Source: a virus (taxonomy: Duplodnaviria > Caudoviricetes). From it: 37,433 bases of DNA. This document shows positions 2,036 to 35,567 of the stretch, piece by piece. The stretch spans positions 1-37,433 of the IMG/VR virus record IMGVR_UViG_3300011338_000534; one strand, given 5' to 3'. A program made the translations under genes and the position numbers. The notes under the pieces were generated by a model. That model ran no database searches and was not told where the DNA came from. It worked only from the letters and a program-made list of their open reading frames with translations. Each line of letters opens with the position of its first letter. The first letter of the stretch is position 1.

Positions 2036-2058
2036 AACGTCTCTCCCTTGTTGCCACC

Positions 2059-3710: not shown

Positions 3711-4078
3711 CCGCCGCCCCACCTCGCCCGTCGATGTCCAAGGCTCGCCGATTGCGACTGTTCGCCCGTGACAACGGCGTCTGCGACATCTGCAAGCAAA
3801 AGGTTCACGCCAATGAGGCGTATGAGTTAGACCATATCATCCCGTGGGCTTTAGGGTTTGACGACAGCGACGAAAACTTAAGGCTGGTTCACAAGACGTG
3901 CCACCGGACAGACAAAACCGGCGGGGACGTGACTAGGATTGCCAAGGCCAAGCGCCAAGGCCGGGAGACAGGCCAACAGGCCAGGCGGCAAGTCAAAGGC
4001 GGCTCGATACCATCCCGACCGTTTCCAAAGACCAAAACCACATGGCCCAAGCGGCCTTTCAAAAGGGGAGACACATGA
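3707..4078 (+). CDS. HNH endonuclease
   Basis: CDIC...ELDHIIP...ENLRLVHKTCH. Confidence 0.88.
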   Translation: MTAAPPRPSMSKARRLRLFARDNGVCDICKQKVHANEAYELDHIIPWALGFDDSDENLRLVHKTCHRTDKTGGDVTRIAKAKRQGRETGQQARRQVKGGSIPSRPFPKTKTTWPKRPFKRGDT

Positions 4079-4422
4079 GAACCACCGTTGCCGATGTGAT
4101 CCGCGAGACGGCTGCAAAGCACCGTATCAGCGTGGCAGACCTGATCGGCCAAAGCCGGGAGCGCAAATACGTCCGTCCGCGTCAGGAGGCCATGTATCGC
4201 GTGTTCACAGAATGCCCGCACATCTCTTATCCTGACGCTGGACGCCGAATGGGGGGCCGTGACCACACCACCGTTTTGCATGGCGTGAAGACCCACGCAA
4301 AGCGCCTTGGCATTGACTACGCCGACGCCATGCAAATCCGCAAAGGCGGGATTAACAAGCCTGTGTTTGCCATCATGGCCAGCGCATACGCCAAAGCCTT
4401 GGAGGCACACCGTGTCCAGTAG
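4075..4422 (+). CDS. DnaA domain IV-like HTH protein
   Basis: VRPRQEAMY...SYPDAGRRMGGRDHTTVLHGV matches the DnaA C-terminal signature; GGGGAG SD; ATGA overlap. Confidence 0.85.
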   Translation: MRTTVADVIRETAAKHRISVADLIGQSRERKYVRPRQEAMYRVFTECPHISYPDAGRRMGGRDHTTVLHGVKTHAKRLGIDYADAMQIRKGGINKPVFAIMASAYAKALEAHRVQ

Positions 4423-4669
4423 CGGCCATTATTTCCGCCCCTATGCCAAGGCCATGATGGAGCGGTCTAATCCCGATATGTCCAAGGATCGGGAGATAGA
4501 GGCAAAGCAGCGAGACGCAGACAGACGCTTCGTTATTGCGCTTGCAGAGGCTTTCCAGCGTGGGGATCATCTGCCAGCGGCCAAACCTGAGCCAAGACGC
4601 ACCAGGCCCGTCCCTACTCCCACCACTCGCCCTTCACTCTTTGCCGTATGGGAGGATGACAATGCGTAA
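4412..4669 (+). CDS. Hypothetical protein
   Basis: GGAGG at 4401-4405 before an in-frame GTG at 4412; fills the operon gap. Confidence 0.6.
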   Translation: MSSSGHYFRPYAKAMMERSNPDMSKDREIEAKQRDADRRFVIALAEAFQRGDHLPAAKPEPRRTRPVPTPTTRPSLFAVWEDDNA

Positions 4670-4826
4670 GCCGCCGGGGCATTGGACACCAGATGAGGAC
4701 CGTATGGTCAAATCAGGCTCGCTTGCCAAGCGTCCTGTTGCAGACGTGGCAAAGACGCTCAACCGGCTGGAAAAGAGCGTTATCATTCGGGCTATTGTTA
4801 TCGGCTTTCCGTTCTCAACATCATGA
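4662..4826 (+). CDS. Small GcrA-N-terminal/Myb-like HTH protein
   Basis: 54 aa, WTPDEDRMVK...VADVAKTLNRLEKSVIIRA..IG; GGAGG SD at 4651-4655. Confidence 0.6.
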   Translation: MRKPPGHWTPDEDRMVKSGSLAKRPVADVAKTLNRLEKSVIIRAIVIGFPFSTS

Positions 4827-6241
4827 CAAACACACAAGGGGAAAAAGTGACTAACTATGAGGCATTCCTAGCGGCCAAGGCCGTTACGGACCCGTTCACG
4901 GGTATATCAGAATTTCCACCGCTGCCTGACTGCTTGTTCCCGCATCAGCGAGACATTGTGTCATGGGCGCTCCGTCGTGGCCGGTCTGCACTGTTTGCAG
5001 GGACCGGGCTGGGCAAGTCGCTCATGGAACTGGCATGGGGTCAGGTGGTGGCTGAAACGACGGGCAAGCCGGTGTTGCATCTTGCTCCGCTCGCCGTGTC
5101 GTCGCAGCTTGTCCGAGAGGCTGACAAGTTCGTCATACCGGCCAGGCTTGTGACGAAACAATCCGACTGCGAAGGCGGCGGCATCTGCGTGACCAACTAT
5201 CAGAAGATTGAGCATTTCGACGTTGCGTCGTTTGGCGGTGTCATTCTGGATGAAAGCAGCATCCTCAAATCGACAGACGGCCATTATCGGAATAAGCTGA
5301 TTGAGGATTGTCAGTTGGTGCCGTTCCGCCTCGCTGCGACCGCCACGCCAGCGCCTAACGACTTCATGGAACTGGGCAACCACGCCGAGTTTCTAGGCGT
5401 CATGTCCTATACAGATATGCTGGCGACGTTCTTCGTCCATGACGGTGGTTCAACGCAAAACTGGCGTCTGAAAGGCCACGCTGAAAACGAGTTCTGGAAG
5501 TGGATGGCGTCATGGGCCGTGATGCTCCGCAAGCCCTCCGACCTTGGCTATCCGAATGAGGGTTATGACCTTCCTCCGCTGCACTATCATCAACACACGG
5601 TCGGGGTCGAATATCGGCCCAGCATTGAGACGGGAATGCTCTTCCCAATCCAAGCCGCCACGCTTTCAGAGCGCATTTCGGCACGGCGCGACACGGTAGA
5701 TGATCGGGTCAAGATGGCCGTTGACATCACCCCGACCGACCGCCCGTTCGTTTGGTGGTGCAATCTCAACAGCGAGAGCGAGGCTTTGGCCAAGGCCATA
5801 CCTGGCGCGGTCGAGGTTCGCGGGTCCGACAGTGACGCGGCGAAAGAGCGTAAGCTTATCGACTTCACCGAAGGCCGCATCCGCGTTCTGGTCACTAAGC
5901 CGTCAATCTGCGGGTTCGGCATGAACTGGCAACATTGCGCGGATACGGGCTTTGTTGGCTTGTCGGATAGCTTCGAGCAGTTCTATCAGGCCATTCGCCG
6001 GTTCTGGCGCTTTGGCCAGACGCAACACGTCAACTGCCACATCATCGCCGCCGAAACCGAAGGCGCGACCGTGGCTAACATCAAGCGCAAAGAGAGCGAC
6101 GCCGAACGCATGGCCGCAAGTATGGTCCTGCACATGGCTGACCTTTCCAGCCTTGCCGTTCGCGGTTCCGTCCGCGACCGTGCCGACTATAACCCGCAAC
6201 AGACTATCATTCTGCCGGATTTCATAAGGGGAAACCAATGA
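4823..6241 (+). CDS. SF2 (SNF2-like) helicase/ATPase
   Basis: Q-motif LFPHQ, Walker A GTGLGKS, Walker B ILDESS, motif III TAT, motif VI QAIRRFWRFGQ. Confidence 0.9.
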   Translation: MTNTQGEKVTNYEAFLAAKAVTDPFTGISEFPPLPDCLFPHQRDIVSWALRRGRSALFAGTGLGKSLMELAWGQVVAETTGKPVLHLAPLAVSSQLVREADKFVIPARLVTKQSDCEGGGICVTNYQKIEHFDVASFGGVILDESSILKSTDGHYRNKLIEDCQLVPFRLAATATPAPNDFMELGNHAEFLGVMSYTDMLATFFVHDGGSTQNWRLKGHAENEFWKWMASWAVMLRKPSDLGYPNEGYDLPPLHYHQHTVGVEYRPSIETGMLFPIQAATLSERISARRDTVDDRVKMAVDITPTDRPFVWWCNLNSESEALAKAIPGAVEVRGSDSDAAKERKLIDFTEGRIRVLVTKPSICGFGMNWQHCADTGFVGLSDSFEQFYQAIRRFWRFGQTQHVNCHIIAAETEGATVANIKRKESDAERMAASMVLHMADLSSLAVRGSVRDRADYNPQQTIILPDFIRGNQ

Positions 6242-7182
6242 CCTACAAGTGCATCGATCAAGTCATCACTGACGACTACGCCGTCTATCTGGGCGATAGC
6301 TGCGAGGTTATCCGCGAGATACCGTCCGACAGCATCCATTTTGGCATCCATTCGCCGCCGTTCGAGGGGCTTTACAAGTTCTCCAACAGCGACCGCGACA
6401 TCTCCAACAATGACGGCCCGGCGTTCTGGGAGCATTACGCTTTCCTTATTCAGGAACTGCACCGCGTGACCATGCCAGGGCGCCTGCATAGCGTTCACGT
6501 CATGCAACTGCCAACCAGCAAGATTCGGCATGGGCACATCGGGATGCGGGACTTCCGAGGCGAGGTTATCCGCGCCTATGAGGATGCGGGCTGGATTTTC
6601 CATAGTGAGGTTTGCATCTGGAAAGACCCGGTAGTCGCGCAACAGCGGACGAAAAGCATCCGGCTCCTGCATAAGCAAATCGTCAAAGACAGCACGATTA
6701 GCGGGCAGGGCCTGGCGGATTACATCGTGACGTTCCGCAAGCGTGGGGAAAATCCCGAGCCGGTTAGCGGATGCTTTGACGCCTATTATGGCGACAGCGA
6801 CGGCCCCGACTTCACGAAATACACCACGAACGCAGACGGGCGTAACTGGTATTCCATCGAGGTCTGGCAACGCTACGCCTCGCCGGTATGGCTGGACATC
6901 AACCAGACGCGGACGCTGCAATATCGTGGCGGGCGCGACCAGAAAGACGAACAGCACATCTCGCCGCTCCAGCTTGACGTGATCGAACGGTGTATCGACC
7001 TTTGGAGCAATGAAGGCGATACGGTTCTGACCCCGTTCCTTGGCATCGGGAGCGAGGTCTATTGCGCCGCTCGTATGGGGCGCAAAGGCATCGGGATTGA
7101 ACTGAAACCGTCCTATTTCGCGCAAGCCGTCAAAAACCTGGCTGAGATCGAGAAAATCGGTCGGGGCCTGTTTAAGGCTTAA
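6238..7182 (+). CDS. Beta-class N4-cytosine/N6-adenine DNA methyltransferase
   Basis: Catalytic SPPF precedes the SAM-binding VLTPFLGIGS...GIGIEL; ATGA overlap with the helicase. Confidence 0.88.
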   Translation: MTYKCIDQVITDDYAVYLGDSCEVIREIPSDSIHFGIHSPPFEGLYKFSNSDRDISNNDGPAFWEHYAFLIQELHRVTMPGRLHSVHVMQLPTSKIRHGHIGMRDFRGEVIRAYEDAGWIFHSEVCIWKDPVVAQQRTKSIRLLHKQIVKDSTISGQGLADYIVTFRKRGENPEPVSGCFDAYYGDSDGPDFTKYTTNADGRNWYSIEVWQRYASPVWLDINQTRTLQYRGGRDQKDEQHISPLQLDVIERCIDLWSNEGDTVLTPFLGIGSEVYCAARMGRKGIGIELKPSYFAQAVKNLAEIEKIGRGLFKA

Positions 7183-7185
7183 GAC

Positions 7186-7220
7186 AAAAGGCCCGGCGCG
7201 GATTGTTAACGCGCCGGGCC
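7186..7220 (-). terminator. Intrinsic terminator oriented for the minus strand
   Basis: 11-bp perfect stem GGCCCGGCGCG/CGCGCCGGGCC (7190-7200/7210-7220); the T-tract follows it only on the minus strand. Confidence 0.7.
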
Positions 7221-7258
7221 AGTCTAGCCGCCATGACAAGGGGAGGAGAGCATGGCGA
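7186..7258 (-). ncRNA. Candidate antisense sRNA 1 (about 75 nt) with an anti-SD loop
   Basis: Minus-strand promoter TTGCAG (7293-7288)-N17-TACGGT (7270-7265); hairpin CGCCAUG-CUCUCCUCCCCUUGU-CAUGGCG; then the terminator. Confidence 0.55.
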
Positions 7259-7296
7259 CGGGCTACCGTAGCGCCTTGCAATCGTCTCTGCAATGA
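7252..7296 (+). CDS. Micro-ORF a, 14 aa (MATGYRSALQSSLQ)
   Basis: GGGGAGGAG SD; its stop overlaps the next ATG (ATGA). Confidence 0.35.
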   Translation: MATGYRSALQSSLQ

Positions 7297-7370
7297 CTGA
7301 TAAAGGGCGGGCGGGTGAGCCGGAAACTCAACCCGCCCTAATCACCGGCTGTTCAAGGAGCCAGACGTGA
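7293..7370 (+). CDS. Micro-ORF b, 25 aa (MTDKGRAGEPETQPALITGCSRSQT)
   Basis: ATGA overlap at its start and GTGA overlap at its end. Confidence 0.3.
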   Translation: MTDKGRAGEPETQPALITGCSRSQT

Positions 7371-7371
7371 C
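7301..7371 (-). ncRNA. Candidate antisense sRNA 2 (about 70 nt) with anti-SD CUCCUU
   Basis: Minus-strand promoter TTGCAC (7406-7401)-N17-TATATC (7383-7378); hairpin GGCU-CCUUGAAC-AGCC; GC-rich hairpin GGGCGGGU/ACCCGCCC with a short U run. Confidence 0.5.
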
Positions 7372-7426
7372 CATGCGGATATACCGCGACCAGTTTAATC
7401 GTGCAAGCCTTCGGGTGGTTCCGTGA
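7367..7426 (+). CDS. Micro-ORF c, putative 19-aa leader peptide of the initiator
   Basis: AAGGAG SD at 7355-7360; GTG 7367 (in-frame ATG 7373); TGA 7424-7426 overlaps the initiator GTG at 7423. Confidence 0.5.
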   Translation: MTMRIYRDQFNRASLRVVP

Positions 7427-8181
7427 GCATTTCGCTTATGACTACCGTTTGGCGGCTCGACCTCCCGTCTTCCGACAAAATGGTTCTGCTTGCCCTTGCC
7501 GACGCAGCAAATGACGACGGCGTAACATGGATGGCCTTGCAGTCAAAAGAGGGCGTGAAGCTAGACCTCTTGAAGAAAACCAGCCTTTCACGGCGGGCGG
7601 TTCAGGGTGCGTTAAAGCGTCTCTGCGATGCGGGGTATTTGTCTCGGATCGACCGGCCCGGCAAAGGTGTCATCTGGACTGTAAGGGGGTGCAGCACGTG
7701 CGCCCCTACCGACGAGAGGGGTGCAGCACGTGCGCCCGGGGGTGCAGCAGATGCACCCAAACCGTCTATTAACCGTCAATCTAAATCAATCTCTAGGGCG
7801 TTCCCGCTTTCATGGCAGCCGAATGAGGAAGATTTGTCTTACGCAGCCAGCAAGGGGCTAACCCCTCAGGAGACCGAACGTGCCAGAGAAGATTTCAGAG
7901 GCCATTTCATCGCTAATGGAAAAAAGACAAGCACCGATTGGAGCCTTAACTGGCAACGGTGGTGCCGCGTTGCAGCCGACGACAAACACCGCCGCAGTCC
8001 TAGCCAAACTGGAAAGCCAATCGCCAGAGGACACCGACCGCAACCTGCTTCAATGGTTGACATCATCCTTGGGAATCGTGCCGGAGCCGCAAATCAGCCT
8101 GACGTATCCGGTGACGGGTGGCTACCAACGGAGCGTGACGGGGTTTTCATTCGAGGGTCTGACCCAGACCAACCTTTCTAG
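7423..8181 (+). CDS. Lambda-O-like replication initiator
   Basis: N-terminal wHTH (DKMVLLALADAAND...SLSRRAVQGALKRL..AGYL), central iterons, and a C-terminal WQP...F..HF...DW...WQRW segment. Confidence 0.85.
   Translation: MSISLMTTVWRLDLPSSDKMVLLALADAANDDGVTWMALQSKEGVKLDLLKKTSLSRRAVQGALKRLCDAGYLSRIDRPGKGVIWTVRGCSTCAPTDERGAARAPGGAADAPKPSINRQSKSISRAFPLSWQPNEEDLSYAASKGLTPQETERAREDFRGHFIANGKKTSTDWSLNWQRWCRVAADDKHRRSPSQTGKPIARGHRPQPASMVDIILGNRAGAANQPDVSGDGWLPTERDGVFIRGSDPDQPF
7686..7794. other. Putative replication origin: three iterons plus an AT-rich tract
   Basis: GGGGTGCAGCACGTGCGCCC at 7686-7705 and 7718-7737; GGGGTGCAGCAGATGCACCC at 7739-7758; AT-rich tract at 7759-7794. Confidence 0.75.
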
Positions 8182-8509
8182 GGCCTTGGAGGCCACCTAC
8201 AGCGCCATGACGCCCGCAACGGTCCAGCGATGCGAAGAACACGTTTCGACGCTCCACGCGGTCACAGCGCACCGGAATGACAGCGAGAACAGTTTGCGGC
8301 TGATCCTGCGGCTTTATGCGGACTGTCTAGCCAGGTATCCGGCTGACGTTTCCAAGGCCGTTGTCCAGCGGTTTATCTATCGATCTGACAAGCCAAACTT
8401 CTTCCCGACGCTGTCAGAACTGAAGGACGCTTGCGACAAGGCAGCGGCACAACGCCAGCAGCTTATGGCGGCGATGGAAAATAAATCCGCTAGGGGGATT
8501 GACGCCTAG
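7916..8509 (+). CDS. Putative helicase loader (lambda P position); start uncertain (7880, 7916 or later)
   Basis: Follows and overlaps the initiator; C-terminal Y..CL..YP....FFPTLSEL pattern seen in phage loader-type proteins. Confidence 0.6.
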   Translation: MEKRQAPIGALTGNGGAALQPTTNTAAVLAKLESQSPEDTDRNLLQWLTSSLGIVPEPQISLTYPVTGGYQRSVTGFSFEGLTQTNLSRALEATYSAMTPATVQRCEEHVSTLHAVTAHRNDSENSLRLILRLYADCLARYPADVSKAVVQRFIYRSDKPNFFPTLSELKDACDKAAAQRQQLMAAMENKSARGIDA

Positions 8510-8568: not shown

Positions 8569-8775
8569 ATGAACAATGCTTACAAGCGGATTTTGACCGT
8601 AGCGTCGGAGCAATCGTCCGAGTTTTTGGCCCACGCTTTTGATCAGTTTCACGGTTCAATGGCGCGGCCCGGTCGCGGCGGCGCGGTTGGCGAATACGTT
8701 ATCGAGGTTCCCGACAGCCCCTACTGGCGTCAGTTTGCTGACCGACTGGTTGAGCAATACGACACTCCCGCATGA
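8569..8775 (+). CDS. Hypothetical protein (cassette cargo)
   Basis: 68 aa from the ATG at 8569 with a GGAG SD. Confidence 0.65.
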   Translation: MNNAYKRILTVASEQSSEFLAHAFDQFHGSMARPGRGGAVGEYVIEVPDSPYWRQFADRLVEQYDTPA

Positions 8776-9008
8776 CACCTGACACCTACCGCGCCGCCAT
8801 CGCCGCCCTCAATCTAAGCCAGAGGGCGGCGGCTAAGGTCATCGGCGTAAACGAGCGCACTAGCCGCACCTATGCCGCTCACGGCGTTCCTGAGAAGCAT
8901 TCAGCATGGGTCCGCGACAAGCTGGCGAACTACCAAAACACAACATGGGCGAACCAGTTTGCCGAAATGGCAGCGGCTTCCGAACAAGGGGAGAAGACCA
9001 ATGATTGA
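8772..9008 (+). CDS. XRE-like HTH regulator
   Basis: YRAAIAALNLSQRAAAKVIGVNERTSRTYA. Confidence 0.8.
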   Translation: MTPDTYRAAIAALNLSQRAAAKVIGVNERTSRTYAAHGVPEKHSAWVRDKLANYQNTTWANQFAEMAAASEQGEKTND

Positions 9009-9201
9009 CCGTTCCGACTACACAGACCATCGCCGCCATGCCGCTATGATGACGGACCAGGCTTCGCACCGTGGCTGGGACTTCCGTGCTGCTGACGAGC
9101 CGCCGATGTGGCTCCGAGCCATAGCCGAGGTGTTCCGCCCTCGCTCTATCATCCTGCTGGCCGTGGTGGCTGGTGTTCTCTCGCTCTTTTGGATTGCTTG
9201 A
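9001..9201 (+). CDS. Small membrane protein
   Basis: C-terminal hydrophobic helix IILLAVVAGVLSLFWIA; GGGGAG SD. Confidence 0.6.
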   Translation: MIDRSDYTDHRRHAAMMTDQASHRGWDFRAADEPPMWLRAIAEVFRPRSIILLAVVAGVLSLFWIA

Positions 9202-9202
9202 T

Positions 9203-9958
9203 ATGACCGACCTGATCCTTTCCGACCGCCTGACGCGCGTCACGACGCTCAAGAGCGGATCGCATGAACCGAACGATGACGCAGCGTTCTGCGTCATGGA
9301 GGCCGTGGCGTATGTCGCTGGCGAGCCGTGGTCCGATCATCCGGCTTGCACTTGCCCGGTTATCACGGCCTTCATGGTTGCGTGGAATGATGGGTTGCCG
9401 TCCGATGCTGACCGCGCCCGTCTGCTGTTGCCCCTGATCCCGGTGCTAGTCGGGACGCGCGGGTCAAAGGCGCTGGAAACCCGCCGCACGAACATGGCCG
9501 CTGACTGGTATATCCGCGTCCAGACGCCCGCATGGTTGCGGCTCGCCGGGCTGACTACGCAAGCCGAGACGCTTGAGGCGTTTCCCGAGATCACCGACTT
9601 CACCGCCGTGCCGTCGCTCAAGCCGACGCTAGACGCCATCCGAAAAGACGCGGCTGCGGCGAGGGCTGCGGCGAGGGATGCGGCGAGGGCTGCGGCGAGG
9701 GCTGCGGCGAGGGATGCGGCGTGGGCTGCGGCGAGGGATGCGGCGAGGGATGCGGCGTTCGATGCGGCGTGGGCTGCGGCGAGGGATGCGGCGTTCGATG
9801 CGGCGTTCGGTGCGGCGAGGGCTGCGGCGAGGGCTGCGGCGAGGGCTGCGGCGAGGGCTGCGCTCGCTCCGACAGTTGCCTCCTTACAAGAAAGCGCCGT
9901 CGATCTGGTCAAGCGTATGTGCGCGCTGACTGACGAAGCCACGGGAGAAGCAGCATGA
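9203..9958 (+). CDS. Protein with AA(R/W/F)(A/D/G) tetrapeptide repeats
   Basis: N-terminal GSH...CVMEAVAYVAGEPWSDHP.C.CPVI domain followed by 17 repeats. Confidence 0.8.
   Translation: MTDLILSDRLTRVTTLKSGSHEPNDDAAFCVMEAVAYVAGEPWSDHPACTCPVITAFMVAWNDGLPSDADRARLLLPLIPVLVGTRGSKALETRRTNMAADWYIRVQTPAWLRLAGLTTQAETLEAFPEITDFTAVPSLKPTLDAIRKDAAAARAAARDAARAAARAAARDAAWAAARDAARDAAFDAAWAAARDAAFDAAFGAARAAARAAARAAARAALAPTVASLQESAVDLVKRMCALTDEATGEAA
9656..9859 (+). repeat. 12-bp tandem repeat, 17 copies, GCGGCG(AGG/TGG/TTC)(GCT/GAT/GGT)
   Basis: Read directly from the sequence; 204 bp, in frame. Confidence 0.95.
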
Positions 9959-35396: not shown

Positions 35397-35567
35397 CTAT
35401 TTCAAGCCGTGCTGCAATGCCATGCGGATAGCTACAGCAGCAGGACCGCTTGGGCCGAGTTTGGCATAGTTCTGGGCGGTCTTGGGGGATACGCCTAGCC
35501 ATCTGCCAGCGGCTTGTTGAGAGAGGCCGAGGGCGGAAAGGGCGGCGCGGTATTCAGCGGGAGGCAT
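35397..35567 (-). CDS. XRE-like HTH regulator, 56 aa (not in ORF track)
   Basis: MPPAEYRAALSALGLSQQAAGRWLGVSPKTAQNYAKLGPSGPAAVAIRMALQHGLK; paralogous to 8772-9008. Confidence 0.8.
   Translation of the reverse strand: MPPAEYRAALSALGLSQQAAGRWLGVSPKTAQNYAKLGPSGPAAVAIRMALQHGLK

Follow-up and report, generated by a model that had tools for sequence, protein, structure and literature searches.

The question raised by this locus is what three minute reading frames on one strand, opposed on the other by two predicted small RNAs, might do in front of a phage replication initiator gene. The window (the whole stretch of DNA analyzed, 37,433 bases) is a complete virus record with direct terminal repeats; judged by its head, portal, and tail genes, the phage is of podovirus type. 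Its capsid has its closest named matches in Rhizobium and Paracoccus phages (about 50%), and its initiator in Brevundimonas diminuta; by these nearest named capsids and initiators, the host is probably a Caulobacterales bacterium. The O-like initiator gene (7423–8181, plus strand; phrog_1032/391, PF13730) combines an HTH_36 N-terminus with a weak DnaT-like C-terminus, and contains three 27-nt iteron-like repeats (7685–7764), after which an AT-rich tract adjoins. The product of a putative partner gene (7880–8509, plus strand) is probably a helicase loader, from its position and from the distribution of its homologs, which occur in initiator-bearing relatives and in none of the A-type genomes discussed below. 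Upstream of the region lies a methyltransferase gene, ending at 7182, to which the second small RNA does not extend. Elsewhere in the window, the 261-aa product of 9173–9958 contains an alanine-rich repeat tract and matches PHROG families without an assigned function, and two short related ORFs with similar HTH-like N-termini (8772–9008 and 35397–35567) lie on opposite sides of the genome.

The elements at issue lie between 7184 and 7446. The three micro-ORFs of the initial annotation are present where it had placed them: ORF a (7252–7296, 14 aa), ORF b (7293–7370, 25 aa), and ORF c (7367–7426, 19 aa, or 17 aa from a second in-frame ATG at 7373), joined to each other and to the initiator GTG at 7423 by the overlaps ATGA, GTGA, and GTGA. 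SD sequences precede ORF a (GGGGAGGAG, 7240–7248) and ORF c (AAGGAG, 7355–7360), while ORF b shows no SD pairing. The initiator had been described as having no clear SD; what it has is weak, but an SD-like GGGTGG does exist at 7413–7418 (duplex energy −6.5, vs. −7.5 for the ORF c SD). A predicted plus-strand hairpin (7414–7446, z −2.2) would bury this weak SD together with the start codon.

On the minus strand, the promoter boxes and hairpins of the same annotation are also found. RNA 1, a predicted small RNA of about 75 nt (7184–7258; fold z −4.65), would be transcribed from the predicted promoter P1 (7265–7293; TTGCAG at 7293–7288, 17 nt, TACGGT). It would comprise a 5′ hairpin (7227–7259) with a C/U-rich loop complementary to the SD at 7236–7248, a terminator hairpin (7190–7220) with a conserved stem, and a U-tract (7186–7189). 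RNA 2, a predicted 73-nt antisense RNA (7299–7371; fold z −3.38), would have an anti-SD hairpin (7342–7370) and a large GC hairpin/terminator (7305–7338); its predicted promoter P2 (7378–7406; TTGCAC at 7406–7401, 17 nt, TATATC) lies inside ORF c and has a −10 box ending in C, not T. No shuffle of 200 was equally stable for either RNA. A plus-strand promoter-like site between the two units (7276–7304; TTGCAA, 17 nt, GATAAA), absent from the initial annotation, is the predicted sense promoter of the replication operon, with a start near 7309–7312. It overlaps P1 divergently, and its −10 box coincides with the RNA 2 U-tract. Contigs from RNA run X1 are pieces of relatives only, none of them over 7178–7845. 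The 5′ arm of the large hairpin contains a short repeat (7305–7315 and 7332–7338) that varies among loci in step with the stem (GGGC, GGGA, and GTGG types), and that would permit different fold registers in the sense and antisense RNAs.

The reading we favor, at a probability of about 0.68, is that the region consists of two separate antisense cassettes, the second acting as a one-stage, plasmid-style brake on the initiator. The promoter geometry, the hairpin covariation, the ORF c overlap, and the occurrence of the layout before several unrelated initiators are established at the sequence level. As proposed, the sense promoter (7276–7304) would start a leader transcript whose first 65–70 bases would be covered by the 73-nt RNA 2 from the convergent promoter (7406–7378). 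RNA 2 would be made constitutively, in proportion to genome copy number, and its pairing with the leader would mask the ORF c SD, stopping ORF c translation. Ribosomes finishing ORF c would be needed to open the 7414–7446 hairpin and restart on the initiator. The variable loops of the large hairpin may define specificity groups.

Relatives were gathered by protein homology and by DNA patterns; the loci are related and recombining, and counts of conservation among them are not independent. In the alignment, the minus-strand TTG–17 nt–TA of P2 is invariant in 24 of 24 loci, with a variable spacer. Its letters fall in all three reading-frame registers of the overlying ORF among these 24 loci, which points to a promoter rather than a peptide constraint. 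For the sense promoter, a TTG at matching spacing is present in all 7 cassette-2 loci without cassette 1; the box reads TTGACG in L039 and in A-type loci. The RNA 2 stems show two-sided changes in 13 of 23 pairs (14 of 23 after realignment to the model, a set biased towards the modelled structure). In all, 89% of stem cells are paired, vs. 37–56% in slid controls, and the cell count was matched by none of 500 shuffles. The minus strand is the more stable in 20 of 24 cassette-2 loci, mainly via G-U pairs, and at initiator-bearing loci the 5′ loop of RNA 2 displays the anti-SD. RNAs of this type form self duplexes of −160 to −197 kcal/mol, vs. mostly −43 to −116 across subgroups; the loops of the large hairpin vary among loci, and cross-pairing drops.

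Coupling is similarly widespread. Of 24 loci, 21 have a first cassette-2 cistron that overlaps the gene behind it, as do 26 of 28 tandem loci; no coupling was seen in the other 3 of the 24. The 21 overlapping cistrons are 17 leaders of 13–22 aa and 4 HNH genes; the leaders differ in sequence and frame, and the next start is met in all 17 of the overlapping short-leader loci (24 examined). The genes behind cassette 2 include HTH-type and DUF1376/primosomal-type initiators and, chained to an initiator, DnaB, PAPS-reductase-like, and HNH genes. Where a leader precedes it, the start region is less accessible than at other starts (unpaired 0.39, n = 26, vs. 0.53, n = 44), and within the same initiator family the start hairpin has a mean z of −1.9 behind leaders (n = 5) and −0.5 behind long genes (n = 16). 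In L033 and L034, the two nearest relatives, the 7414–7446 hairpin persists through matched changes. Roughly half of the leader loci have a weak start-site hairpin or none (11 of 26 show z below −1; L038 has +0.9); among controls with long upstream genes, z is below −2 in 2 of 16. As modelled, start-burying across the 26 leader-coupled starts is real on average and weak in about half. Cassette 2, the ORF c coupling, and both predicted antisense promoters exceed chance.

Searched with the cassette-2 model, each genome has a single copy. A further scan, independent of sequence and tuned on these loci, looked for convergent promoters on either side of a folded 60–100-nt RNA. It gave a single match in this genome, at 7276, and matched the replication locus in 11 of 14 genomes. 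One match each was obtained in 3 of 25 Markov controls, and the scan missed the unit in two genomes that bear it (G018 and G180). The cassette unit is missing from Sphingopyxis phage VSN-002 and Microcystis phage Mvi-Yong1342-1, whose initiators are related. A divergent cassette 2 lies ahead of a different initiator family in L308, L334, and L351.

Other explanations of these features can be considered. The hairpins might serve only to end sense transcripts or as sites of their processing, the promoter matches on the minus strand being by-products of codons: in this genome the plus strands of both RNA regions fold almost equally well (z −4.96 and −2.58), and a generic sigma-70 scan of the region called no promoters, neither of the minus-strand ones included. 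This seems improbable in view of the 17-nt spacing, fixed across three reading frames and unrelated genes, the U-tracts and G-U pairs on the minus strand, and the near-consensus boxes in relatives' units, one of them TATAAT. Alternatively, RNA 2 may be real but act on transcription or RNA stability, by attenuation, promoter collision, or RNase III duplex cleavage, as for repABC ctRNA or lambda OOP, with the ORF c coupling representing the usual phage gene packing. Consistent with this, a 4-nt overlap with the upstream gene is ordinary in this initiator family, cassette or no cassette, and most homologs overlap any upstream gene; the start hairpin is weak in about half of loci; and A-type genomes have a convergent-promoter unit without SD or leader, so that SD masking cannot be the sole mode of cassette-2-like units. 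The anti-SD shown by the RNA 2 5′ loop at initiator-bearing loci and the 17 differing leaders that all end on the next start argue against it, and we consider it rather unlikely.

The initial annotation itself envisaged a two-stage relay, in which RNA 1 gates ORF a, ribosomes are handed along ORFs a, b, and c to the initiator, and a second entry is gated by RNA 2. The chain is intact in this genome, and transcripts of the upstream operon could plausibly read through cassette 1, since only on the minus strand is the first hairpin followed by a U-tract. Conservation speaks otherwise. There are 31 distinct tandem loci, 28 of them with the standard first promoter; among these 28, the full chain occurs once, in this genome, the a–b overlap likewise in 1, and the b–c overlap in 3, which leaves the relay unsupported. 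In relatives ORF a has 3–195 codons or lacks a start (the other 3 of the 31 tandem loci have no start codon behind the first SD), and in 25 of 28 loci the ORF b ATG is missing or ORF c is not met. The reading is weakened further because the predicted sense promoter lies downstream of the first SD and would start the leader transcript downstream of cassette 1. Nor is the cascade duplicated, as had been suggested: RNA 1 does not duplicate RNA 2 in sequence, nor do the two cross-pair. A relay is thus highly improbable. The three-peptide chain appears to be a coincidence of this one genome, the a–b and b–c overlaps do not exceed chance, and ORFs a and b are by-products, ORF b being an incidental frame over RNA hairpins.

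If there are two separate cassettes, as we prefer, the first needs an explanation of its own. The P1 pattern TTGC..–17 nt–TA...T is found in 28 of 31 tandem loci, part of these letters having already been fixed by the search patterns; the other 3 have a different promoter region. The RNA 1 terminator stem has two-sided changes in 5 of 10 pairs, and the minus strand is the more stable in 13 of 17 loci. Search patterns with and without the loop return an identical 16 contigs, so loop conservation does not come from ascertainment. In 16 distinct A-type loci, by a lenient matching rule, the cassette-1 SD starts a gene for a 161-aa protein, and the same RNA is present; the first codons of this gene hold a minus-strand promoter, with variable −10 boxes, one of them TATAAT. 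The gene is absent from this genome, which has retained RNA 1 and a promoter, and a relative about 99% identical over 3926–7247 diverges precisely at the ORF a start. Cassette 1 would on this evidence be a separate antisense brake of another replication module, that of the 161-aa gene of the sister phages, and the SD and ORF a (7240–7296), whose peptide is not conserved, would be the orphaned remnant of a cistron start, a stump left by module exchange. In L285 (1271–1530), a truncated cassette 1, a second cassette-1-like unit, and a cassette 2 are stacked.

The 161-aa protein (e.g., L265:2538-3020) is conserved, with 89 homologs, and has no family match by sequence. Its structural model (pLDDT 82) has no Foldseek match at E 0.001 in PDB or BFVD; weak leads are an atlas score of 0.89 to Phg_2220_C and BFVD rows at E 0.06–1. 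It weakly resembles the C-terminal domain of phage initiators.

RNA 1 has most likely been kept for a separate job. Tentatively, our first choice would be trans pairing with ribosome sites of sister phages or early genes; a possible second is insulation of the operon from read-through together with competition with the overlapping sense promoter; and it is unlikely that RNA 1 has merely been carried along by recombination. Its duplexes with A-type leaders reach −146 and −110 kcal/mol, vs. −178 with itself. Action in trans on the cassette-2 leader was rejected (−46 vs. −178 kcal/mol). A candidate trans target is the ribosome-binding site (RBS; 2036–2053, minus strand) of the first leftward early gene (2035–1868), which shares ACAAGGG..AG with the complement of the loop and ranks 9 of 143 starts by duplex energy. 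Loop-matching RBSs precede early genes in 7 of 7 tandem genomes and in none of 4 without cassette 1, and they are scarce in host-family genomes (3 matches in five); this lineage may simply favor the motif as its RBS. We did not accept RNA 1 as a proven early-gene repressor: across 6 genomes the candidate sites rank only 2–11 among 117–143 starts, G008 lacks the left-type site, three-G and four-G variants fail to vary together, and a similar RBS occurs in G017, which has no RNA 1. The early region itself (1868–2346) has divergent promoters, serving on the right a Cro-like HTH gene and on the left a 55-aa unknown gene that is not a CI-like repressor; the left promoter and RBS are reused ahead of different genes in relatives.

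RNA 1 invites comparison with the C-rich small RNAs of alphaproteobacteria. The accounts in PMC12559287 and PMC5869019 define the host anti-SD and C-rich small RNAs that resemble it, and RNA 1 shares with the Alpha-r8 (SuhB, MmgR, SisA-D) and ar14 groups its size, a C/U-rich single-stranded loop, and a terminator. Its Rfam scores are below threshold (suhB 14.7 of 41 bits, ar14 27.2 of 58.8), with neither found in 13 relatives. The alpha-r8 decamer is present here in 8 of 10 letters, and exactly in L218, sited in the 5′ hairpin loop; as described in PMC12559287, however, the decamer is single-stranded and downstream of a weak hairpin, an arrangement RNA 1 does not have. The RNA 1 loop, unlike those RNAs, is the complement of a real cis ribosome site in the A-type phages. 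Three host-family genomes contain an intergenic element (L391:1504-1620, L392:1439-1555, and L393:1439-1555) with a promoter-like site, a C-rich loop, and a linker and terminator nearly as in RNA 1, below threshold in Rfam; it is possibly an uncharacterised host small RNA.

The A-type sister phages (genomes G178, G179, and G180) have neighboring genes in common with this phage, and no match to any initiator tested or to the loader. Behind the gene for the 161-aa protein comes a cassette-2-like unit, whose sense promoter (TTGACG) and convergent promoter enclose an RNA of about 80 nt with two hairpins, no SD, and no leader; a script detected it in 8 of 15 A-type sequences, and it was found in G179 otherwise. 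There follow 350–450 bases without a convincing gene (z −0.7 to −5.4 in 9 sequences, unit hairpins included). In L263 this stretch ends in a remnant of the 3′ end of the loader gene, by which the non-coding stretch fills the same slot as the initiator. The slot is L377:12132-12650 in G178, with the same in G179, G180, L256, L263, L274, L281, L286, L291, and L344, and the structured stretches are of at least three unrelated types. They suggest a candidate RNA-based or RNA-primed origin under antisense control. The swap also suggests that the cassette is tied to replication and not to one protein.

Antisense control of initiators is textbook material for plasmids. For R1, one study reportedly names a structure that conceals the ribosome site of repA. 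Here such a structure over the initiator ribosome site is predicted in this genome and its closest relatives, and is weak in about half of the leader loci. In R1, as outlined in PMC4393325, translation of the initiator is coupled to that of a leader ORF, and this leader is controlled by an antisense RNA whose promoter is convergent. Cassette 2 holds all three R1-type parts in predicted form: a cis antisense RNA on the rep leader, from a predicted convergent promoter, and a leader overlapping the initiator start. By this analogy it most likely works like CopA/tap, and the likeness drawn in the initial annotation, with an antisense RNA covering the SD of a leader ORF to which an O-like initiator is coupled, is supported by conservation and covariation. 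Homology to CopA or IncFII RepA was not found: there is no Rfam match, the initiator is HTH_36/O-like, and no plasmid matches the region. The differences from R1 are that RNA 2 covers the leader SD itself and has its promoter inside the leader ORF, that the initiator is of the lambda O kind and has repeats within its gene, that the leader slot can hold full-size HNH or DnaB genes, and that the carrier is a tailed phage.

In the I-complex group, the ColIb-P9 genes are called Inc, repY, and repZ. The part of this literature covered by PMC10724649 (pMU720, IncK RNAI) describes a 60–70-nt antisense RNA, coupled rep genes, loop changes that define compatibility, and an activating pseudoknot. The hairpin loops here vary likewise, with a drop in cross-pairing, but RNA 2 has two hairpins, not one main stem-loop. 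The repABC ctRNA (RepE, inc-alpha) is, in the account of PMC6090056, a short antisense RNA upstream of an alphaproteobacterial initiator and a source of incompatibility. It is about 50 nt long and lies within the repABC operon with partition genes, whereas here there is no ParA and no Rfam ctRNA match.

Among phages, antisense control of the P1 lytic replicon is said to have been described by Heinrich et al. in 1995. That replicon (P53, kilA, repL) has its initiator behind the first cistron and its origin inside the gene, according to the descriptions in PMC9948254 and PMC8198154. The phage replication initiator gene behind a first cistron, the repeats inside the gene, and the predicted antisense control are points of likeness. 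In P1, by contrast, C1 represses P53, kilA is a complete gene, and there is a separate plasmid replicon; a C1/CI-like repressor or second replicon was not found in this phage. Lambda OOP, presented in PMC3349717 as a 77-nt self-terminating RNA transcribed backwards just upstream of O, resembles RNA 2 in position. OOP opposes the 3′ end of cII, however, whereas here there is no cII and RNA 2 faces the promoter-proximal leader and its SD. Lastly, integrase-free cluster A mycobacteriophages swap a protein initiator (RepA) and an RNA-based origin in one slot, as far as PMC7157519 sets this out, and the A-type relatives, with a non-coding region in the initiator slot, recall both these phages and ColE1 RNA I/RNA II. 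Cluster A has parABS and a demonstrated plasmid state; neither is seen here. The cassette belongs to none of the systems compared.

These comparisons bear on lifestyle. The absence of an integrase and of CI, proposed in the initial annotation, extends to relatives: a tyrosine integrase is present in none of 11 complete cassette-bearing genomes, and an S24-type repressor in none of 5. Neither the resolvase family (serine recombinase) nor ParA (CbiA/ParA) was found in 14 records, and the cassette is missing from G022, the one complete relative that does encode an integrase, together with a divergent HTH pair. The cassette was not found in 151 host-family genomes by a model search (a set without a positive control), nor in 401 host-family genomes by DNA search, nor in the plasmids searched. 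Four DNA matches in the 401 genomes are not prophage copies, and a Novosphingobium bin match to the cassette model was rejected as lying within a coding region. The region has no blastn match to named phages and two short chance matches to plasmids. The findings give no sign of the low-copy extrachromosomal maintenance that the initial annotation had thought possible, and fit either a lytic phage or an unpartitioned multicopy state.

A more speculative combination, which we think unlikely as a whole, is that these 36–45-kb, integrase-free and CI-free phages persist as multicopy, plasmid-like, RNA-run replicons. Cassette 2 would set copy number and incompatibility for a protein initiator or a sister RNA-primed origin, and the orphaned RNA 1 would serve as a trans repressor of the sister replication gene and of the phage's own first early gene, replacing a repressor protein. 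If the phage is simply lytic, the unit would serve to limit the dose of a replication protein that is toxic or critical in its timing, a more modest result.

No Rfam family scored above threshold in the window, 13 relatives, an A-type region, or the host look-alike, and we found no description in the literature searched of such antisense initiator control for alphaproteobacterial phages. By comparative evidence from the sequences, the cassettes are real, conserved, and uncatalogued. The same RNA unit precedes at least four initiator types and an initiator-free non-coding module, a natural series for testing the exchange of antisense specificity, leader coupling, and possibly RNA-primed replication in phages. 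Minireplicons, if they work, would provide new vectors for Caulobacterales.

The pattern searches differed greatly in yield. A loose SD-hairpin pattern returned 119 stretches, nearly all unrelated, the only true units being L152, L153, L169, L195, L209, and L212; L189 was doubtful and was dropped. With the leader pattern, 6 of 22 matches were true units, and with the cassette-1 pattern 12 distinct loci were judged unrelated and 2 more too short. Among the chance matches to the loose pattern, L101, L102, L109, and others contain an element that recurs ahead of one gene across many unrelated viral contigs and is itself a conserved leader of unknown kind.
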